A stretch of 64,000 nucleotides of DNA from an uncultured Clostridia bacterium (GTDB lineage: Bacteria > Bacillota > Clostridia > TANB77 > CAG-508): NCBI GenBank assembly GCA_947589015.1, contig CANPZF010000002.1, forward strand, positions 18,252 through 82,251, written 5' to 3'. The notes below the pieces were generated by a model. It made no database searches. It was not told the origin of the DNA and saw only the letters and a program-made list of their open reading frames with translations. Position 1 is the first letter of the stretch; every line of letters begins with the position of its first letter. The translations under genes were made by a program, and so were the position numbers. Positions 10,217-19,601 of this stretch are shown here, one piece after another.

Positions 10217-10244
10217 ACTATATTACCAATTTCGACATAAAATA
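10217..10244 (+). promoter_or_regulatory. Candidate sigma-K-type promoter for yabG
   Basis: AC, then 17 nt, then CATAAAATA fits AC-N16-17-CATAnnnTA; B. subtilis yabG is sigma-K dependent. Confidence 0.3.
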
Positions 10245-10272: not shown

Positions 10273-10641
10273 ATGAGACAGATAAAGAAAGGTGATATAG
10301 TAGGCAGAAAATCATATAACAAAGATGTAATTTTTGTTGTAAAAAATATAATAAGCACAAGAAATGGAAAAATAGCTATTTTAAGAGGCTTAATTGAAAG
10401 AGTAGAAGCAGACTGTCATATAGAAGATTTAGAACTTATAGACAAAAAAACAATAAAAAATAATTTAAAGTTGCAAGAAATAAAGGCAGAAAAAAGAATA
10501 AATTCTTCAAAAAACAATGAAAAAGATACACAATATAGAATAGGAATTTTAAATTTAGACAAAAGAAATAAAGAAAGAATTATTACAGGTAAAATATTGC
10601 ATTTAGATGGAGATAATATTTTTATATACACACACCAATAA
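10273..10641 (+). CDS. yabG: Sporulation-specific protease YabG, 5' segment of a split gene (authentic coding to about 10611, then read-through into the insert)
   Basis: MRQIKKGDIVGRKSYNKDVIFVV...GKILHLDGD parallels the B. subtilis YabG N-terminus (GDMVARKSY...GKVLHLDGD). Confidence 0.85.
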   Translation: MRQIKKGDIVGRKSYNKDVIFVVKNIISTRNGKIAILRGLIERVEADCHIEDLELIDKKTIKNNLKLQEIKAEKRINSSKNNEKDTQYRIGILNLDKRNKERIITGKILHLDGDNIFIYTHQ

Positions 10642-10651
10642 AAAATTTTTT

Positions 10652-10794
10652 GTTACAAGATAATGATTTAAATGCTTATATATTAATATATTTTGTCAAA
10701 ACATATCTGGGGTGTAACAATCTGGGTATTGACTGCAAATATTAATATATAAGCATTTTAGCATATTCTAAGTTTGTAACCACTATCCTGTAAC
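10652..10794 (+). repeat. Family B palindromic element, copy B1 (inside the intervening element)
   Basis: GTTACAAGATAATG...ATGCTTATATATTAATAT...centre...ATATTAATATATAAGCAT...CTATCCTGTAAC; close to 59878-60034. Confidence 0.85.
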
Positions 10795-10882
10795 AATTTT
10801 TTTGAAGTTTATAGTAAAAGATAGTAGAAAAGCTAAATTATAAATGATATAATTAGTACAGTATTATAAGAGGAGAAAATTT

Positions 10883-12604
10883 ATGGGAAAAAATTATATA
10901 TGTAGTGATATTCACGGAATGAAAGGATCATACGAAAATGCACTAAAACAATTAAAAGACGATGATAAATTATATATACTAGGAGATGCAATAGACAGAG
11001 GAGACGAAGGTATTCAAATACTAATAGATATAATGCAACATTCAGGAGAACAAGGGAAAAAACCAAAAATAGAATATATAATAGGAAATCACGATTTAAT
11101 GTTTATTGAGAATATGGAAACTATTATGAAGCACAAAATTGGTATAAAAAATCAAGCAGATTTAGATTTATGGCCTCAATTCGAAAAATTATGTTATGAA
11201 TTAGAATTAGCAAGATTAGGAGGAGAAGAGGGAAGAACAGAATTTGATACAATAAAAAAAAAAATTACATGGCTAAAAGACATATCATTTGAAGAAATGT
11301 TAGTTTTAGCTGAACACATATATAATGATGGAAGACATACAATATTTAACTTTATGAGAATGAAAGACAATGTACAAGAACAATTATATAATTTCATGGA
11401 AAATTGTTATATACAAAAACAAATCAACATAGAAGGAAAAAACTATGTAATAACTCATGCTGCTCCAATACCAGTGCCTACTAAAAATAATCAAGGTATA
11501 ACTTTAAAACAAGCAAGAAGCATGATACAATCAAATGCGACTACAAACATACAAAAAGATAAAAGAGGATTATACGATTATATATCAGCAAGAGGTACAC
11601 AAGCAGTTAAAGAATGGCAAAAATGGCATCAAAAAGGATACTATACAATATGCGGACACACGCCCAAAAGAGGAACTCCTGATATAGATTACAATTTAGG
11701 AAGAATTATTATAGATACAGAGACAGCATATAATGGAGACTTAGCATTAGTAAATATAGATGCTGGAGAACTTACAATGATTGGAACAAAAGGAACAATA
11801 AATGGCCAAAGCAAAGATTATAGACCCAACAGCTATGAAAATCAACGAAAGCTAGTAAAAGATTTTTTTAATAGTGTACCTATAGCTGCAAAAGAACAAA
11901 TACTTACTCGAAATATAACAACAAAAGAAATCAATATATTACAACAGACTCCAAAAGACGATAACATATATACATCAAAAATTAGTGATTTACCAGCCCA
12001 GAAATCATATGTCACAAAATATAAGGAAATGAAAAACAGAATGGAAAATGGAGAAAAACCAACTCAAGACGATTATAAAATATTAAATCAATTGTCTACG
12101 CAAAAATTAGATTCACAAATGTATACAGAGCAAGAAAGACAAACAAGAATCGAACTATTAAAATGGGGAAGAATCATAAAACAAACAAATCAACAAACAA
12201 CACAAGAACCTATTGCATCAGATACAGCAAAAATTAGTGATTTACCAGCTCAGAAATCATATGTTACAAAATATAAGGAAATGAAAAACAGAATGGAAAA
12301 TGGAGAAAAACCAACTCAAGATGATTATAAAATTTTAAATCAATTGTCTACACAAAAATTAGACCCACAAATGTATACATATCAAGAAGAACAAACAAGA
12401 ATCGAACTATTAGAATGGGGAGGAATCATAAAACAAACAAATCAACAATCAACACAAGAACTATTTACAGAAGATGACTATAGTGAAATATATAATTTAA
12501 CAGATATAGAACAAATAGATGCAATAATTCAAAAACTAAAAGAGCAAAAGAAAAAAATACAAAGCCAACAACAAGACGGACAAACACCAAATATGACAGA
12601 GTGA
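10883..12604 (+). CDS. Calcineurin-like metallophosphoesterase (Ser/Thr phosphatase-like) with tandem-repeat C-terminus
   Basis: SDIHG, GDAIDRGD and GNHD motifs; two 84-aa C-terminal repeats. Confidence 0.7.
   Translation: MGKNYICSDIHGMKGSYENALKQLKDDDKLYILGDAIDRGDEGIQILIDIMQHSGEQGKKPKIEYIIGNHDLMFIENMETIMKHKIGIKNQADLDLWPQFEKLCYELELARLGGEEGRTEFDTIKKKITWLKDISFEEMLVLAEHIYNDGRHTIFNFMRMKDNVQEQLYNFMENCYIQKQINIEGKNYVITHAAPIPVPTKNNQGITLKQARSMIQSNATTNIQKDKRGLYDYISARGTQAVKEWQKWHQKGYYTICGHTPKRGTPDIDYNLGRIIIDTETAYNGDLALVNIDAGELTMIGTKGTINGQSKDYRPNSYENQRKLVKDFFNSVPIAAKEQILTRNITTKEINILQQTPKDDNIYTSKISDLPAQKSYVTKYKEMKNRMENGEKPTQDDYKILNQLSTQKLDSQMYTEQERQTRIELLKWGRIIKQTNQQTTQEPIASDTAKISDLPAQKSYVTKYKEMKNRMENGEKPTQDDYKILNQLSTQKLDPQMYTYQEEQTRIELLEWGGIIKQTNQQSTQELFTEDDYSEIYNLTDIEQIDAIIQKLKEQKKKIQSQQQDGQTPNMTE
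11977..12460 (+). repeat. In-frame tandem duplication, 252-bp period, inside the phosphatase gene
   Basis: AAAATTAGTGATTTACCAGC(C/T)CAGAAATCATATGT... recurs 252 bp later (11981 vs 12233); protein repeat ISDLPAQKSYVTKYKEMKNRMENGEKPTQDDYKILNQLSTQKLD. Confidence 0.9.
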
Positions 12605-12620
12605 ATTAGGAGAAATACAT

Positions 12621-13064
12621 ATGGAAGAAAATTTCAAAGAATCATTAAGAGAAACTTATGAAATAATACAAAATAGTGAATCTGAAATAAAACAAAAGAT
12701 ACCAAAATCATTTCTAGAATTTATAAAAAATAATATGAGTAATGATTATAACAAAAATGAAATAATTTATAATACTAATTGGAAAGATTCTATAAGCGAC
12801 GACACTAAAGCAATAATAGCACTAATATATAGAGATTATCTTATTTCAGACGAAGAAAGAAATAAACTAATACAACAAGAAAAACAAAAACGATATATAT
12901 ATGAGAAGGAATTACGAGAGAAATATAATCCAGACAATATATTTAAACAAAGACAAAATAAAACAAATGACAACACAAACAATATAAACCTGCTGGAAAT
13001 TAAACAAACGTCATGGTTTAGGAGTATTCTAAATAAAATATTAAAATTTTTTAGAAAAAAATAA
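12621..13064 (+). CDS. Hypothetical protein (147 aa)
   Basis: ORF with GGAG RBS, tightly following the phosphatase gene; no recognisable motif. Confidence 0.5.
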   Translation: MEENFKESLRETYEIIQNSESEIKQKIPKSFLEFIKNNMSNDYNKNEIIYNTNWKDSISDDTKAIIALIYRDYLISDEERNKLIQQEKQKRYIYEKELREKYNPDNIFKQRQNKTNDNTNNINLLEIKQTSWFRSILNKILKFFRKK

Positions 13065-13230
13065 TAAAAAACAAAGAAAAAATGCCTATAATAATCATTT
13101 AATTTTGATTTATAATTTAGTTTTTCACAAGAAAAAGGTGTGTCATGGATACCTCTAGATTATTAATTCATAAAAAATGTAGTTTCCTCATAATTTTAAA
13201 TAAACAATTTAATTTTGTGAGGTAAGTATA

Positions 13231-13347
13231 ATGAAGAAAAATGAAGAAGTTATTATTATTTATGATAAAAATGCTGAAAATATTGAAAAAAAAATATTAA
13301 AAATATTTGAAAAATATTTGGAAATAAATATGTCTAAAATGGGCTAA
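13231..13347 (+). CDS. Small 38-aa ORF upstream of the recombinases (MKKNEEVIIIYDKNAENIEKKILKIFEKYLEINMSKMG)
   Basis: GAGGT RBS 8 nt upstream; followed by hairpin AAAATGCCTATGATAGGCATTTTTTT. Confidence 0.3.
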   Translation: MKKNEEVIIIYDKNAENIEKKILKIFEKYLEINMSKMG

Positions 13348-13478
13348 CAAAAATTTTATATATATTAAAATGCCTATGATAGGCATTTTTTTCTTCAGGG
13401 AGAAAAAGCCGAAAAATAATTACAATTTGAACTGTGTTAAAACTTAAATTTATGACTTGGAAAGGAATGTAATTAAAA

Positions 13479-15035
13479 ATGAGGACATATTATTCAAAAG
13501 TTGCAGCATATATAAGATTATCAAAAGAAGATGAAAAAGAAGGTGAAAGTGAGAGTGTAAGTAATCAAAAAGAATTAATAAAAAAATATATAGAACAGAA
13601 TAATTTAGGCAAATTTGAATTTTTTATTGATGATGGTTATAGTGGTGGCAATTTTGAAAGACCTAAATTTAAAGAACTAATAAATGAAATTGAAAATGGA
13701 AATATATCAACTGTTATAACAAAAGATACGTCAAGATTGGGAAGGGATTTTATAGAAACAAGTCATTATATGTTTAAATATTTTCCAGAACACAACATAA
13801 GGTATATTTCTATATTAGAAAACTTTGATACATTTAATCCAAACGGTGTGGAAGATATGATTCCATTTCAAACAATTATAAATGATTGGTACTTAAAAGA
13901 TACTTCTAAAAAAATAAAGAGTGTTAGACAAAATAAAATGAAACAAGGATTATATATGGGAAGTACTGTACCTTATGGATACAAAAGGTCAGAAGAAAAT
14001 AATTGTAAACTTGTGATAGATGAATATTCAAGTGAAATTGTAAAAAGAATTTTTAGTATGAGATTAGATGGAATTAGACCGACAATAATTGCTAGAACAC
14101 TATCAACTGAAAACATTTCTCCACCGTCAATATACAATGGTAGAAACATAAAAAAAACATATACAAGTTATTTATGGAGTGTCAGTACCATAAACCAAAT
14201 ATTAACCAATCAGATTTATATTGGAAATATGGTACAAAGAAAATTTGATAAGGTAAATTATAAAAGCAAAAAAAAGATAAAATTAAAACAAGAAGATTGG
14301 ATTATTGTTGAAAGCTGTGTCCCACAAATAATAAGTAAAGAAGATTTTGATAATGTAAAAAGAATGACAAAAAATAATGATAGTAGATGTGCGAAAGGAT
14401 ATAGTTATTTATTAAAAGGATTAGTTGTCTGTGGTGATTGTGGTAAAGTAATGGCAGTTAGAAGAAGAATAAATAAAAGGAAGATTAAAGAAGCTAATAT
14501 AGAAACTTACTATTGTTGTTCTAATAATATACGATACAGACATGGAGTTTGTAGTTTACATTATTTTCAAGAACAAAAATTAAATGATATAGTTATTAGT
14601 TACTTAAGAGATACACTTAATAAATATGCTAATAAAAAAGATTTTAAAAAAATAGGTGAACAAAAACAAAGAAATATGTGTGAAACACAGAATATAAACA
14701 ATGAAATTATTAAATACAATAAAAAAATAGATAATTTAAAAGAAGCAATAAAAAACTTGTATGTAGATAAAGTAAATAATCTTATATCTGAGGATGAATT
14801 TATAGAGTTAAAAAGGCAAATTGAAGATGATAAAAATAATTATATAGAAAAAGTAACTAAACTAAACAAAATGGTGAAAGAAAACACCACCAATAGCCAT
14901 TTAATTGAAAAGAAAATAAAAGAATTTTTGGAATTAGAGAAAATCAATAAGCAAATTTTAATGGAATTAATACAAAAAATTGAAATAATGAAAGATAAAA
15001 AAGTAAAGATATTTGTAAAATATAATTTAGATTAA
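13479..15035 (+). CDS. Large serine recombinase (resolvase/invertase N-domain, recombinase domain, zinc ribbon, coiled coil)
   Basis: AAYIRLSKED...SNQ...DDGYSGGNFERP...TKDTSRLGRD catalytic domain; CGDCG zinc ribbon. Confidence 0.9.
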   Translation: MRTYYSKVAAYIRLSKEDEKEGESESVSNQKELIKKYIEQNNLGKFEFFIDDGYSGGNFERPKFKELINEIENGNISTVITKDTSRLGRDFIETSHYMFKYFPEHNIRYISILENFDTFNPNGVEDMIPFQTIINDWYLKDTSKKIKSVRQNKMKQGLYMGSTVPYGYKRSEENNCKLVIDEYSSEIVKRIFSMRLDGIRPTIIARTLSTENISPPSIYNGRNIKKTYTSYLWSVSTINQILTNQIYIGNMVQRKFDKVNYKSKKKIKLKQEDWIIVESCVPQIISKEDFDNVKRMTKNNDSRCAKGYSYLLKGLVVCGDCGKVMAVRRRINKRKIKEANIETYYCCSNNIRYRHGVCSLHYFQEQKLNDIVISYLRDTLNKYANKKDFKKIGEQKQRNMCETQNINNEIIKYNKKIDNLKEAIKNLYVDKVNNLISEDEFIELKRQIEDDKNNYIEKVTKLNKMVKENTTNSHLIEKKIKEFLELEKINKQILMELIQKIEIMKDKKVKIFVKYNLD

Positions 15036-15050
15036 GGAGTATTTATAAAA

Positions 15051-16592
15051 TTGAATTGCGCTTATATTAGACTATCAGAAGAAGATGTAGAAAAATCTAA
15101 AGACTTTTCAGATAGTATATTGAATCAAATTGAATTAATAGAAGAATATGCAACGAAAAACAATATACATATAGATAAAAAATATATTGATGAAGGTTAT
15201 TCAGGAATTAATTTTGCAAGACCTGCATTTGAAAAAATGTTGAAAGAAATAGAACAGGACAATATTGGAACAATCATTACAAAAGATTTTTCAAGATTGG
15301 GTAGGGAATATATTGAAACTAGTTTTTATATTACACGCTTTTTTCCAGAACATAATATTCGATATATTGCTATAAACGAAGATTATGATAGTGTAAAAAA
15401 AGATAATGACACTAAAGAAATGATGGTTGGTATAAAAGGAATATTAAATGATTACTATATTAAAGACACGTCAAAAAAAATCAAAGCAGTTAAAGAACAA
15501 AAAGTAGAACAAGGAAATTATATGGGATTTATAGCACCATATGGATATATAAGAATAAAAAATCCAGAAGGAAGAATAACTTTAGAAATAGATGAAAATG
15601 TTGTGAAAATTGTAGAATTTATTTTTGAAAGTATAATAGAAGGAAAAAGAAGAAAAGATGTGGCAAATATATTGAACTCTAAAAATATACCTTCACCAAT
15701 GCAATATATGAATATGACTAAAGCAGCAGGCAAAAATTATTATGATAGGTGGACATCTGGGATAATATACAGAATCATTAGAAATCGAACATATACAGGT
15801 GTTACATATAAAAGAAAATCATCAAAAAAAGATTATAGACAAAAAAAGAGAAATTACATAAAGCCAATAGATAGAGAAATTATACAAAATACCCATGTAG
15901 CAATAATTGATGAAAAAACATTTGAAAAGGCTAATTATATGATAAAGACTTTTAAACCCAAGAAAAACAGAGTAGAAGATTACAAAGGAGTTTTAAATGG
16001 ATTAGTCAGATGTGGAGAATGTGGAAAAACATTAAATGTTAGTGGTAGAAAAAAAGAAAGTGGAAAGATAGTTTATAGTTTTTATTGTACTGATGGTAAA
16101 AATGGAAATAAGAATTGTAATAATACAAAGATAATTTTTACTAATAAATTAGAAAATATTGTATATGAATTTCTAATAAGTGAAATGAAAAATTTAATGG
16201 AAGAAAAAATAATAGAAAAATCCAATGAATATATAACCAAAAAAAGAAAAATAAAAAATGAAATAGAAATGTTAAAAAAAGAAATCGAAATAAAAAAATT
16301 AAATATAAAAGATTTATATTTACAAAAAGTAAAAAATCAAATAACTGCAGAGTTTTTTGTTCAAAAAAGACATGATGAAATAGAACAAATTAAAGAAAAA
16401 GAAAATAAAATTGCACAAATATCTGAAATTATTGAAACGAAGCAACAAAAACAAGAAGTTAGAGAGCAATATGATAAATTTAAAAATAAAAATAATTTAA
16501 TGAAATATATAAATGAATTAGTAAAACAAATTAATTTCTATAGTGATAGAAAAATTGAGATTATATTAAAATACGGAAAATTACGAGAATAA
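15051..16592 (+). CDS. Large serine recombinase, second tandem copy
   Basis: TTG start; CAYIRLSEED...DEGYSGINFARP...TKDFSRLGRE; CGECG zinc ribbon; paralogous to the upstream gene. Confidence 0.9.
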   Translation: MNCAYIRLSEEDVEKSKDFSDSILNQIELIEEYATKNNIHIDKKYIDEGYSGINFARPAFEKMLKEIEQDNIGTIITKDFSRLGREYIETSFYITRFFPEHNIRYIAINEDYDSVKKDNDTKEMMVGIKGILNDYYIKDTSKKIKAVKEQKVEQGNYMGFIAPYGYIRIKNPEGRITLEIDENVVKIVEFIFESIIEGKRRKDVANILNSKNIPSPMQYMNMTKAAGKNYYDRWTSGIIYRIIRNRTYTGVTYKRKSSKKDYRQKKRNYIKPIDREIIQNTHVAIIDEKTFEKANYMIKTFKPKKNRVEDYKGVLNGLVRCGECGKTLNVSGRKKESGKIVYSFYCTDGKNGNKNCNNTKIIFTNKLENIVYEFLISEMKNLMEEKIIEKSNEYITKKRKIKNEIEMLKKEIEIKKLNIKDLYLQKVKNQITAEFFVQKRHDEIEQIKEKENKIAQISEIIETKQQKQEVREQYDKFKNKNNLMKYINELVKQINFYSDRKIEIILKYGKLRE

Positions 16593-16615
16593 TATATTAT
16601 CATAGCAATAACAAC

Positions 16616-16662
16616 TATAAGCATTTTCGCATATTCTAAGTTTGTAACCATTATCATGTAAC
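16616..16662 (+). repeat. Partial family B element (right end only), direct repeat of 10748-10794
   Basis: TATAAGCATTTTCGCATATTCTAAGTTTGTAACCATTATCATGTAAC matches 10748-10794 at 44 of 47 positions. Confidence 0.85.
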
Positions 16663-16691
16663 AACAAATAATAAAAAATTAAGAAAAAATG

Positions 16692-16720
16692 TTGCAATAA
16701 AAAAATAAATATATTATAAT
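16692..16720 (+). promoter_or_regulatory. Sigma-A-type promoter for the sortase-substrate operon
   Basis: TTGCAA, 17 nt, TATAAT. Confidence 0.5.
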
Positions 16721-16749
16721 AAGGTAAGTTTATATAAGGAGGATTAAAA

Positions 16750-17280
16750 ATGAAAAAAGCATTAACAGTAGCAGTATTATTTGTTATGCTAATGGCAGTA
16801 GCTATGACAGCTGTATATGCTTCAACATCTAAAAGCCTATCAAATGATTTATATGCAATTGGATCTAAATATGGTATGGATGCAGGGTATAAAAATCAAG
16901 TAGATATGGTTTTAGCTAGTGTTGGAGAATTATCTGATGCAGACTGTGATAGAATAGTTGCATTAGCAAATCAAGCAGCTAAAATTATGGATGACAATGG
17001 GCTAAAAAACTACGACGAATTAAAAGCTGCATCAACAGAGATTAAAGATCAATTAGAATCTTTAGCAGTTGAAGCAGGAAATATTGCCGGAGTATCAGTA
17101 GTATTTAAATCAGCAAATGTTGAAGTCTATAATAAAGCTACAGGAAAATTAATTACAACACTTACACAAAGTGAAAAAGCAGCTTATACAGGTTCTAATG
17201 CAACAGTAGCTATTTCTTTAACAGTAATTGCTTTAGTAGCTACAACAGCAATTGTAACAAAAAAAAGATTAGCTGCATAG
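16750..17280 (+). CDS. Secreted protein with C-terminal sorting-signal-like tail (putative sortase substrate)
   Basis: Signal peptide MKKALTVAVLFVMLMAVAMTAVYA; C-terminus AAYTGSNATVAISLTVIALVATTAIVTKKRLAA (xxxTG, hydrophobic stretch, basic tail). Confidence 0.55.
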   Translation: MKKALTVAVLFVMLMAVAMTAVYASTSKSLSNDLYAIGSKYGMDAGYKNQVDMVLASVGELSDADCDRIVALANQAAKIMDDNGLKNYDELKAASTEIKDQLESLAVEAGNIAGVSVVFKSANVEVYNKATGKLITTLTQSEKAAYTGSNATVAISLTVIALVATTAIVTKKRLAA

Positions 17281-17418
17281 TAAAAATTTAAGTGTAAATA
17301 TAAAAAAGTAACTATGATGAAAATAGTTACTTTTTTATTTATATTATTAATATAAAGGTATTGAAAACGAATGATAGAAATGATATTATATTCAAAGTAA
17401 ATATAGGGAGGAAAAGTA

Positions 17419-18048
17419 ATGTTTGGAAAAAAGGTTATTACAAGAACAATAAAAGCTACAATTATAAATATTATTATGGCGATACTTATTACAGTGGCTT
17501 TTATTTATATAATTCAATTATTTTTTGGTAAAGAAATAAATGAAGGAGTTTCTTTGATAAATATGATGTCAGTAGAAGTAGCAAATATAAAACTAGAAGA
17601 AGCTACAATAGATGAGGAAGAAAGCAGATTACAAAATTATCCAGAATATGGAACACAATATGCTACAATTAAAATACCAAAGATTGATGTAAATTTACCA
17701 GTTTATTATGGAAACACATTGGATATTTTGAAAAAAGGCGTAGGGCAAAGCGGTGGAAGCTACTTCCCAGGCGAAGGTGGCTCAATAATATATATGGGGC
17801 ATAACTCAGCTAATGTATTTAGAAGATTTTCAGAGTTACAAAAAGGAAATGAAATAATAGTAACAACATCATATGGTGAATATAAATATAAGATATATGA
17901 TATGCAAATAATTAAAGAAACCGAAATGGAAAAATTGCCAATTCAAAGAGACAGAGAAATATTAATGGTATACACTTGCTATCCATTTAGAAATATAGGA
18001 TATACAACACAAAGATATGTAGTATATGCAGAACCAGTAGAAAAATAA
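17419..18048 (+). CDS. Sortase-family transpeptidase
   Basis: N-terminal TM; IIYMGHNS (His) and MVYTCYPF (Cys) motifs; conserved Arg near the C-terminus (TTQRYVVYA). Confidence 0.75.
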   Translation: MFGKKVITRTIKATIINIIMAILITVAFIYIIQLFFGKEINEGVSLINMMSVEVANIKLEEATIDEEESRLQNYPEYGTQYATIKIPKIDVNLPVYYGNTLDILKKGVGQSGGSYFPGEGGSIIYMGHNSANVFRRFSELQKGNEIIVTTSYGEYKYKIYDMQIIKETEMEKLPIQRDREILMVYTCYPFRNIGYTTQRYVVYAEPVEK

Positions 18049-18109
18049 AAGGAGAAAGGTTGAAGAATAATCTAATTCTTTTCCAACCAGATTTGTGCTT
18101 TAGAAAGGA

Positions 18110-18979
18110 ATGAATTTAAAAATGAAAGTTGTAAAAAATATATTTAGATATATAATGGCAATTATTTTAGCAATGTCAATAGTTGTATTATTAGTAATAA
18201 ACTTAGCTTCATCTACGATATTAAATCAAAATTATATAACAAAGCAACTAGAAAAAGCAGACTATTATAATAAAATATATGAACTAATATACTCAAATTT
18301 TGAAAACTACATATATCAATCTGGATTAGATAAAGAAGTTTTAGAAAATTTAGTAACTGTAGAGAAAATAAAGAACGATACAAATACTATAATAATGAAT
18401 GTATATAGTGGGATTACAGAAGAAATTGATATACAAGAATTAAAAGACCAAATGAGTAATAATATAGAAAAGTCAGTACAAAGCATATATGGTAGAAGTT
18501 TAAGCGTAACAGAGAAAAAATCAGTTGACGATTTAATAGAAAAATTGGCTAAAGAATATACAGACACCATATTCTATTTTAACATAGAAAAACAAATAAA
18601 TAATGTATATTCAAAAGTAGTTAAAATACTTGACATGGTGAAAGCAGCATTATGTATAACAATAGGAGTTGCTATTATAATGTTAATATTACTATCATTA
18701 AGAAGAATTTACAAAATATTTACAATGTCTGGAATAGCACTTATTTCATCAGGACTATTTTTTGTAATAGCAAATTATGTAATAAATTCAAAAATAAAAA
18801 TACAGACAATAACAATATATAACGATGCAATATCAACAGTAATAAGAAATATAGGAAGTAATATATTAGCAAGTATAAATACGTATGGAATAATACTTCT
18901 TATATCAGGAATAGCATTGGTAGTAATATCAAACTTAGTACATAATATAATAAAACAAAAATATATGGAAGAAGAGTAG
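18110..18979 (+). CDS. Hypothetical membrane protein
   Basis: N-terminal TM, soluble middle region, 3-4 C-terminal TM segments; no recognised family. Confidence 0.5.
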   Translation: MNLKMKVVKNIFRYIMAIILAMSIVVLLVINLASSTILNQNYITKQLEKADYYNKIYELIYSNFENYIYQSGLDKEVLENLVTVEKIKNDTNTIIMNVYSGITEEIDIQELKDQMSNNIEKSVQSIYGRSLSVTEKKSVDDLIEKLAKEYTDTIFYFNIEKQINNVYSKVVKILDMVKAALCITIGVAIIMLILLSLRRIYKIFTMSGIALISSGLFFVIANYVINSKIKIQTITIYNDAISTVIRNIGSNILASINTYGIILLISGIALVVISNLVHNIIKQKYMEEE

Positions 18980-19076
18980 ATAAAAGTAATATTAAATGTA
19001 GATTCTTCTGATAGGTATTTTTTCTTCAGGGAGAAAAAGAATAGTATGTTCATTTATAAAAAACTGTACAAAATTA

Positions 19077-19601
19077 TTGTCAGCAGATGGTGACAGAAAA
19101 TATAGTGAAAAATCATATAAATATTATAAAAAATTGGGATTAAATGCTATTGTAAAAAATATACCTGAATACAAGCAACCTAAAGTAGCCTATAAATTAC
19201 TTGAAATATATCAACCAGATATTTTAGTAATTACAGGGCATGATGGTATGATAAAAAGAGAAACTAAGTATAATGACATATATAATTATAGAAATTCTAA
19301 ATATTTTATTAGTACTGTGCAAGAAGCAAGAAGATATGATAGAGAAAAAAAGAAGAATACAGTTATATTTGCTGGTGCTTGTCAAAGCTATTTTGAAGCA
19401 TTAATTTTAGCAGGCGCAAATTTTGCATCTTCACCAGCAAGAATATTAATAGATTTTTTAGATCCTCTTATAGTGGCTGAAAAAATAGCATGTACAGAAC
19501 ATTATAAATATGTTACTATTGATGATATTGCATCAGAATTAAGAGATGGAAAAAAGGGTGTTAGTGGAGTTGGAGCAAAAGGAAAAATGAAAAAAGAATG
19601 A
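19077..19601 (+). CDS. yabG: Sporulation-specific protease YabG, 3' segment of the split gene (authentic coding from about 19086)
   Basis: ...QPDILVITGHDGM...YRNSKYFISTVQEARRYD...VIFAGACQSYFEALILAGANFASSPARILIDFLDP parallels the B. subtilis YabG C-terminal half; veg follows as in B. subtilis. Confidence 0.85.
   Translation: MSADGDRKYSEKSYKYYKKLGLNAIVKNIPEYKQPKVAYKLLEIYQPDILVITGHDGMIKRETKYNDIYNYRNSKYFISTVQEARRYDREKKKNTVIFAGACQSYFEALILAGANFASSPARILIDFLDPLIVAEKIACTEHYKYVTIDDIASELRDGKKGVSGVGAKGKMKKE

Follow-up and report, generated by a model that had tools for sequence, protein, structure and literature searches.

A two-recombinase, non-phage element interrupts the sporulation protease gene yabG in uncultured gut Clostridia

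In a 64,000-nucleotide (nt) stretch of DNA from an uncultured Clostridia bacterium (contig CANPZF010000002.1 of GenBank assembly GCA_947589015.1; hereafter the window, whose numbering is used throughout), the gene for the sporulation protease YabG is present as two separate pieces. This arrangement raises the question of whether yabG has been lost or is interrupted in a manner that can be reversed. The intervening DNA is almost certainly an element inserted site-specifically by large serine recombinases (LSRs), whose precise excision would restore yabG, and comparison with related loci makes it on balance probable that this excision is developmentally programmed in the mother cell. The list of open reading frames (ORFs) places the 5' piece in ORF 10273-10641 and the 3' piece in ORF 19077-19601, with seven larger ORFs on the same strand between them. 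An initial annotation, made from the sequence letters, had read these two ORFs as the N- and C-terminal fragments of YabG, and both were separately assigned to Pfam family PF05582 (YabG, peptidase U57). ORF 10273-10641 comprises the N-terminal part of YabG plus nine codons supplied by the element. Removal of positions 10611-19090 in silico (8,480 bp), from which a restored reading frame had been predicted, yielded an 849-nt ORF of 282 amino acids (aa) that gives one end-to-end match to PF05582 (residues 5-281 on profile positions 1-277 of 280, E = 9.5e-89). The nearest intact proteins in a database of 5.8 billion clusters are also 282 aa long and 77-78% identical at 100% query coverage. When the rejoined YabG was aligned with eight intact homologs of 280-285 aa (71-78% identity), no gap, which the annotation had named as a sign of an error, appeared at the junction, and the sequence TGKILHLDGD.KY.EKS spanning it was invariant. 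The gene downstream of the 3' piece is veg, as had been expected, and is recognized by the Pfam VEG profile. The identical split arrangement recurs in the ENA assemblies ERZ27249433, ERZ27249426 and ERZ27249236, as it does in Logan contigs from the three runs ERR10663687-9, and is therefore no assembly artefact. The split of yabG by an intervening element is real, and the factual statements of the initial annotation were confirmed.

The ends of the element reveal how it was probably inserted. Both junctions contain the hexamer AGATGG at the positions reported earlier, and the crossover could lie anywhere within this 6-bp repeat. The dyad symmetry of attP, the attachment site of the predicted circular form, assigns it to the dinucleotide GA. 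With the two element ends of the window joined, 15/22 and 14/20 positions match, with a sharp peak at GA (10606-10607 / 19086-19087), while random positions in the window average 5.8 +/- 2.1 of 20 (P(>=14) = 0.0005). A dyad of 10 in 12 positions had been claimed for this site; it proved to be real and longer. One slip in the same description concerns the circular junction, for which position 19090 was placed next to 11 instead of 10611. The rebuilt attP dyad peaks at GA in all seven elements for which both ends are available (11-16/20 matches, as against 1-10/20 at other offsets), and no comparable dyad symmetry was found in attB. GATG are the only bases common to attL and attR across these seven elements, and the junction always falls in phase 0 of the Asp codon in H-L-D-G-D. 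The right arm is also conserved in the related loci L009, L031, L058 and L022 (ACAGTCAGC/ACAGTCCCC). An imperfect inverted repeat around a non-palindromic dinucleotide shared with attB is typical of serine integrase attP sites, and the same architecture was described in the study of the gin element (PMC5595907). As GA is non-palindromic, it would fix the orientation of insertion.

The serine recombinase suggested by these ends is present twice, since the element encodes two LSRs in tandem. LSR1 and LSR2 share 35% identity, both contain the nucleophile motif Y-I-R-L-S, and a Y-x-R-L/I-S motif is kept in all LSR copies compared across the family. The catalytic domain of TnpX is the nearest solved structure. 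Neither protein was identified by NCBIfam as a CcrA/B, XisF or other named equivalog. Both genes adjoin the yabG 3' piece in the same orientation, as spoIVCA does in skin elements. Three features of the intervening elements of sporulation genes (the class of skin, SPbeta, vfbin, gin and yin) are found at this locus: a mother-cell sporulation gene is cut, the inserted DNA has its own recombinases and junction repeats, and excision in silico rebuilds the gene.

The initial annotation had treated the locus as a single case, but it is one member of a large family. Relatives were collected by scanning GTDB species representatives with the rejoined YabG, by scanning metagenomes with LSR2 and by a protein search with LSR1. 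Among the GTDB representatives, 30 related loci were detected, two of which match only from residue 107 on. In L022, a metagenome-assembled genome from mouse gut, an element of 8,043 bp that includes LSR1 and LSR2 orthologs interrupts yabG at the same codon, and L009 starts inside LSR2 and continues into the same right junction. The metagenome scan added L031 and the more distant L032. The LSR1 search gave approximately 120 clusters among the matches listed, ranging from 86% to 47% identity, and the genomic context of eight homologs spanning this range was inspected (78, 69, 68, 64, 54, 53, 50 and 48% identity). All eight sit in a tandem LSR1-LSR2 module. A yabG 3' piece followed by veg was called in seven of them, while the eighth, L054, has a decayed piece and only veg was called; five of the eight also have a called yabG 5' piece upstream. 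Together with L009, L022, L031 and L032, these homologs make 12 other loci with the same module, and in 11 of them (L054 with its decayed piece being the other) the module adjoins a yabG 3' piece that begins at the same codon (HL|DGD). The recombinase pair is conserved in all 13 loci, with one member broken in five of them, and the family is widespread in uncultured gut Clostridia. Complete elements measure 5.6-9.1 kb and several others exceed the fetched 10-kb flank. Their cargo differs in every element where it is visible and includes an NTase/HEPN pair, a PemK toxin with SUKH-type immunity-like genes, radical-SAM and NUDIX genes, a nucleoside deoxyribosyltransferase and AAA_14/DUF4143 genes. 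Judged from this comparison, the core of the element is a three-gene module made up of a 33-44-aa ORF, LSR1 and LSR2, and the rest appears to be interchangeable cargo.

The small ORF, 38 aa long in the window, provides a first indication of how excision might be controlled. It is located directly upstream of LSR1 in 12 of 12 loci where this region is visible, has the consensus M..E.VI.IYDE..ESIE.KILKIFEKYLE and evolves with a dN/dS of 0.24-0.31. An AlphaFold2 single-sequence model of the 38-aa product consists of an extended N-terminal strand and a helix (residues 15-37) with a pLDDT of 89, and the protein is a candidate recombination directionality factor (RDF). Known RDFs dock on the coiled-coil region of LSRs. 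Ahead of the ORF, a motif of two blocks at fixed spacing, TCATAAA-N14-CATAAnnT, was found at the same place in 8 of 9 related loci within otherwise unconserved DNA. In its strict form, this sigma-E-type pattern has only two occurrences in the window when both strands are counted, and the base rate of the loose form is approximately 0.006 per 60 nt. A terminator-like hairpin between the small ORF and LSR1 is also present in L051, a similar one was read in L022 and L031, and none is found in L052 and L053. The yabG gene itself is preceded by a sigma-K-type motif, AC-N17-CATAnnnTA, in 16 of 18 split and intact loci, mostly about 56-60 nt from the start codon; this pattern occurs six times in the window on both strands. 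A scan for sigma-70 promoters was uninformative (87 sites versus 84 expected). The sigma-E promoters of C. difficile combine ATA at -35 with a -10 element that closely resembles that of sigma-K promoters; the latter use AC at -35, and for one of them the -10 element was reported as CATATAAT (PMC3789822). In the same organism, yabG (CD3569) is sigma-K dependent (PMC3789822). The directionality factor of the C. difficile skin element, CD1234, is under sigma-E/SpoIIID control, which confines excision to the mother cell (PMC5025042). A sigma-E-type motif at the small ORF and a sigma-K-type motif at yabG would therefore fit mother-cell excision as in skin, SPbeta and gin, and the putative order of sigma-E, small ORF and recombinases, excision and sigma-K-driven yabG mirrors that of the C. 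difficile skin element.

The following course of events can be proposed. A non-phage integrative element would have been inserted by site-specific recombination through a serine recombinase at the GA of the Asp codon, within the invariant HLDGD motif. It would stay integrated in the vegetative cell and in the forespore, where yabG would remain split. In the mother cell, sigma-E RNA polymerase would transcribe the small ORF and, where the intervening terminator is missing, the recombinases as well. The small protein would act as directionality factor, upon which one or both recombinases would recombine attL with attR and a circle carrying attP would leave. The rejoined yabG would be transcribed from its sigma-K promoter to yield the spore-coat protease, and while the mother cell lyses, the germ line would retain the element in the spore. 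Excision itself, its timing, the role of the small ORF and the division of labor between the two recombinases are what we infer here.

The maintenance of the interrupted gene can be followed across the family. In five of the seven two-ended elements (window, L022, L053, L056 and L058) the rejoined yabG is intact, with encoded proteins that are 43-75% identical, and the C-terminal half of YabG shows dN of 0.14-0.20 at dS > 1. The divergence of LSR1 tracks that of the host YabG (r = 0.96 over 15 non-independent pairs), and for LSR2 the correlation is weaker (r = 0.77). These data suggest a long association with a split gene that is kept under selection, an outcome that would be expected only if the gene is rebuilt.

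Several observations weigh against a developmental role. In L054, both recombinases are intact while the yabG 3' half (13184-13880) has become a pseudogene through two frameshifts and a nonsense codon, and in L052 (4380-4440) the yabG 5' half contains a 1-nt insertion (AAA-C-GGTTTA); carriers can therefore live without YabG. One of the two recombinases is broken in 5 of the 13 loci (LSR1 in L022, L031 and L058; LSR2 in L055 and L032). Related species with a split yabG are interspersed with others in which the gene is intact; L022, for example, is split, while L005 and L014 are intact with nearly the same attB. Between L051 and L052/L053, LSR2 is 84-86% identical at only 60% identity of YabG, and this excess of LSR2 likeness over that of the host gene indicates that the elements also move horizontally. 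No excised product was seen. The integrated form was seen in every assembly inspected, no intact allele of this species' yabG was found among the best protein matches (top identity 78%), and an exact search of IMG/VR for the attP junction returned nothing. The promoter assignments are consensus matches only.

Some of these points are equally expected of an ordinary mobile genomic island that uses the HLDGD-coding sequence as a safe landing site, inactivates yabG and excises for horizontal transfer without any tie to sporulation. The decay of yabG in L054 and its frameshift in L052, the interleaving of split and intact genes, the discordance of some recombinase and host distances and the variation of cargo among all elements where it is visible would fit such an island, and loss of yabG in B. 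subtilis and C. difficile does not prevent spore formation. A C. botulinum strain without the yabG element yin is reported to sporulate as well, and yin to be dispensable for sporulation (PMC10747680). Such an island would not, however, account for a conserved sigma-E-type promoter ahead of a small ORF beside the recombinases, for two yabG halves that stay open and conserved across deep divergence in five of seven elements, or for LSR1 divergence that follows that of the host. The site also lies always in a gene expressed in the mother cell, and known elements in such genes excise developmentally (PMC5595907, PMC5025042, PMC10747680). We regard the island without a sporulation link as unlikely, and programmed excision as the better explanation.

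Less probable still is that LSR1 and LSR2 form a pair like CcrA and CcrB that carries out integration as well as excision and needs no directionality factor, in which case the small ORF would be a regulator or have nothing to do with recombination. CcrAB, a two-gene operon, works independently of an RDF (PMC5595907). The LSR genes are likewise adjacent and are kept as orthologous pairs: between the window and L022, LSR1 is 66-87% and LSR2 60% identical, as compared with 35% between the paralogs, and dN/dS is 0.10-0.25 for both. Against a pair of this kind stand the loci in which one partner is broken while the other is intact and the attP dyad, which suggests that one kind of dimer binds both half-sites. 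In addition, the NCBIfam CcrB and CcrC models score only 79-103 bits (CcrB 103 and 79), far under the 900-bit cut-off, and the small ORF is conserved in every element. The last alternative, a chimeric assembly or misjoin that merely seems to split yabG, has virtually no chance of being correct and was dropped, as the arrangement recurs in the assemblies and runs named above and in 12 further loci with the module from other projects, 11 of them with yabG split at the same codon.

L022 (7386-7404) and L031 (8908-8926) share a 1-nt insertion in LSR1 (GCATAT-C-GGTTAT), which splits the gene after residue 166 and so leaves one ORF for the catalytic domain and another for the DNA-binding part. Between these two loci both halves are under purifying selection (dN/dS 0.12 and 0.18 at dS 0.31-0.37), and matching 358-aa proteins form cluster P0233 with 17 member sequences. 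The split could reflect programmed frameshifting, a recombinase that functions in two pieces or an error that recurs. The extra base in L052 yabG is also a C before GGTT, which may be a coincidence or a systematic effect. A different LSR1 frameshift in L058 (9721-11293) gives pieces of 81 aa and 430 aa, and the 430-aa form recurs in many database clusters (P0183 and similar) with up to 30 member sequences. In L057 (13165-14288), LSR2 is separated from the yabG 3' piece by two small ORFs and a short resolvase-domain gene (191 aa), the third of its kind in this element, and in L032 a 131-aa resolvase-domain ORF is all that is present in the place of LSR2.

The positions of all features in the window are compiled in Table 1. 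Capsid, tail and terminase genes were not found in the element, and PHROGs matches were limited to integrases, a NinI-like phosphatase and one family of unknown function that matches the sortase. The whole element had no megablast match in phage and plasmid collections. A scan of IMG/VR with an LSR2 alignment detected only distant relatives of <=29% identity, and the element is therefore without a viral counterpart. Its size and the lack of phage structural genes led to rejection of a prophage origin. Within the phosphoesterase gene, two 252-bp tandem repeats (92% identical, 11970-12473) encode duplicated 84-aa units in the C-terminal half of the protein; the metagenome contig L045 stops within this gene, upstream of the repeats. 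Searches of Pfam, NCBIfam, PHROGs and PADLOC gave no match for the 147-aa protein, homologs of which (35-38% identity) occur in related genomes outside the yabG elements (L009:3598-3909, L027:583-1020 and L029:462-899). The secreted 176-aa protein is a probable sortase substrate, as judged by its C-terminal features, and weak ZorA-like PADLOC matches to the surface protein were judged not meaningful. A 49-nt direct repeat (94% identical) lies upstream of both cargo gene groups (10748-10796 and 16616-16664), and its second copy completes the sigma-K-like motif at 16611. This motif and the class D sortase hint at possible late expression of the surface-protein and sortase cargo in the mother cell. 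An exact repeat of 22 nt, TTTTTTCTTCAGGGAGAAAAAG, is found at 13387-13408, upstream of LSR1, and at 19018-19039, 46 bp inside the right end, each time after a GATAGG(C/T)ATTTTTT hairpin tail. A sequence related to it forms the ribosome-binding site of LSR1 in L022 and L031. The 22-nt repeat may be a scar left when the sortase cargo was inserted between LSR2 and the right end. Neither the 49-nt nor the 22-nt repeat was detected in the related elements searched for them, and both are therefore outside the family core.

Table 1. Features of the interrupted yabG locus in window coordinates
Feature	Position	Strand	Remarks
sigma-K-type promoter of yabG	10217..10244	+	AC-N17-CATAaaaTA
yabG 5' segment	10273..10610	+	codons 1-112 plus 2 nt, end ...KILHLDG
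attL core AGATGG	10605..10610	.	inferred crossover dinucleotide GA at 10606-10607
left element arm, one attP half-site	10608..10630	.	similar in L022 (AGAGTGTATTTTTGTATAC)
yabG-intervening element	10611..19090	+	8,480 bp; 25.0% GC vs 26.6% in window
cargo calcineurin-like metallophosphoesterase	10883..12604	+	NinI/ApaH-like N-terminus
cargo 147-aa protein	12621..13064	+	no family match
sigma-E-type promoter	13168..13196	+	TCATAAA-N14-CATAATTT; ahead of small ORF
conserved 38-aa ORF	13231..13347	+	MKKNEEVIIIYDKNAENIEKKILKIFEKYLEINMSKMG; upstream of LSR1
terminator-like hairpin	13367..13389	+	between small ORF and LSR1
LSR1, large serine recombinase, 518 aa	13479..15035	+	Resolvase, Recombinase, Zn_ribbon_recom domains
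LSR2, large serine recombinase, 513 aa	15051..16592	+	Resolvase, Recombinase, Zn_ribbon_recom domains
sigma-K-like motif within 49-nt repeat	16611..16638	+	AC-N17-CATAttcTA; upstream of surface-protein/sortase genes; consensus match only
cargo secreted 176-aa protein	16750..17280	+	C-terminal hydrophobic segment and KKR tail, read from sequence; no family match
cargo class D sortase	17419..18048	+	Pfam Sortase 1.6e-27; NCBIfam class D sortase 1.6e-34, under curated cut-off
cargo 289-aa membrane protein	18110..18979	+	function not assigned by Pfam
right element arm, other attP half-site	19063..19084	.	...CTGTACAAAATTATTGTCAGC
attR core AGATGG	19085..19090	.	crossover GA at 19086-19087
yabG 3' segment	19091..19601	+	last nt of Gly112, then Asp113 onward (DRKYSEK...) to stop
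veg (context gene)	19772..20071	+	Pfam VEG; downstream of yabG 3' piece
sipL	20347-21918		after veg; yunB next
attB junction after rejoining			...AAATATTGCATTTAGATGGTGACAGAAAATATAG...; predicted
attP junction of circular form			...AAATTATTGTCAGCAGATGGAGATAATATTTTTATA...; predicted

A broader interpretation of the family is put forward tentatively. The elements might constitute an old and large family of small non-phage cassettes at a single yabG codon throughout uncultured gut Clostridia, in which a sigma-E-driven micro-protein of 33-44 aa sets directionality and two LSRs have divided or partly redundant roles. Besides acting as a developmental switch in the maturation of the spore coat, such a cassette could shuttle variable cargo such as toxin/antitoxin-like genes, nucleotide-modifying genes and spore-surface sortase systems. 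If this is true, it would be the first developmental excision system with two recombinases and would have one of the smallest directionality factors proposed. The only published element that splits yabG was reported as unique, and with the 13 independent loci described here and the approximately 120 recombinase clusters listed at 47% identity or more, yabG emerges as a recurrent target in gut Clostridia. It would rank after sigK as the second widely used developmental insertion site, in a setting where sporulation drives transmission from host to host. The diverged recombinases and attachment sites for one target offer material for studying how serine integrase specificity evolves and for orthogonal genome-engineering tools, and the very small conserved candidate directionality factor is directly testable. 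The findings also call for caution in annotation, as many metagenome-assembled genomes will have yabG annotated in two fragments or listed as missing.

Comparison with known systems places the element among the intervening elements of sporulation genes. The initial annotation could not confirm that an element targeting yabG had been described. One has been published, and it is a different element at a different position of the gene. This element, yin of C. botulinum V73 (Douillard et al. 2023), was shown by PCR to excise and circularize with restoration of yabG, was linked to earlier sporulation, and its authors found no other yabG-disrupting element in public databases (PMC10747680). Like the element described here, yin interrupts yabG and carries a large serine recombinase. 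It is, however, a prophage and measures 50.4 kb, as compared with 8.48 kb for the element in the window; its repeat is 14 bp long, and the one recombinase at its edge has 551 aa, in contrast to the two LSRs found here. The quantitative PCR primers that span the yin attachment site translate to GACHLA and CLDPVFLCE, which correspond to residues 208 and 236 of this YabG, whereas the site used here is at residue 112, which puts the yin site some 100 codons or more further downstream. Searches of the literature on yabG and recombinases or intervening elements yielded only yin and papers that cite it, with no account of the present family.

The initial comparison with skin and SPbeta holds in that an intervening element occupies a mother-cell sporulation gene, but the element is not prophage-like. 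The skin elements in sigK, with the recombinases SpoIVCA in B. subtilis and CD1231 (together with CD1234) in C. difficile, also carry a recombinase at the edge that adjoins the 3' gene piece. As in the present family, cargo is not shared from one element to the next. The skin elements are prophage-derived and often larger, and rely on a single recombinase. Their target is a sigma factor essential for late sporulation, while yabG is not essential for spore formation. The CcrA and CcrB recombinases of SCCmec are likewise two paralogous LSRs in one operon on a small non-phage cargo island; in the present family, one member of the pair is broken in 5 of the 13 loci. The LSRs of the window are not CcrA/CcrB orthologs, and SCC elements differ in that they target the 3' end of rlmH, need no directionality factor and lack a developmental context.

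The closest analog in kind is the gin element in gerE of B. cereus ATCC10987 (Abe et al. 2017, PMC5595907). It is likewise a non-phage element in a mother-cell sporulation gene, with several serine recombinase genes (two of them in an operon), cargo that varies between strains, an attP with an imperfect inverted repeat around a short shared core (9 bp in gin) and a small extra factor, GirX, that sets directionality. It differs in its target and in its three recombinases, as compared with yabG and two recombinases here. Recombination of gin depends on girC, which lies apart, and not on the dispensable girAB pair of the operon, whereas the tandem pair described here is a conserved unit next to the attachment site, and the candidate directionality factor would be the 33-44-aa small ORF. 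The present family is also much more diverse and resides in uncultured gut Clostridia. What is new is a family of non-phage cassettes with tandem recombinases, a conserved micro-ORF, a new site in yabG and a wide spread in gut Clostridia.

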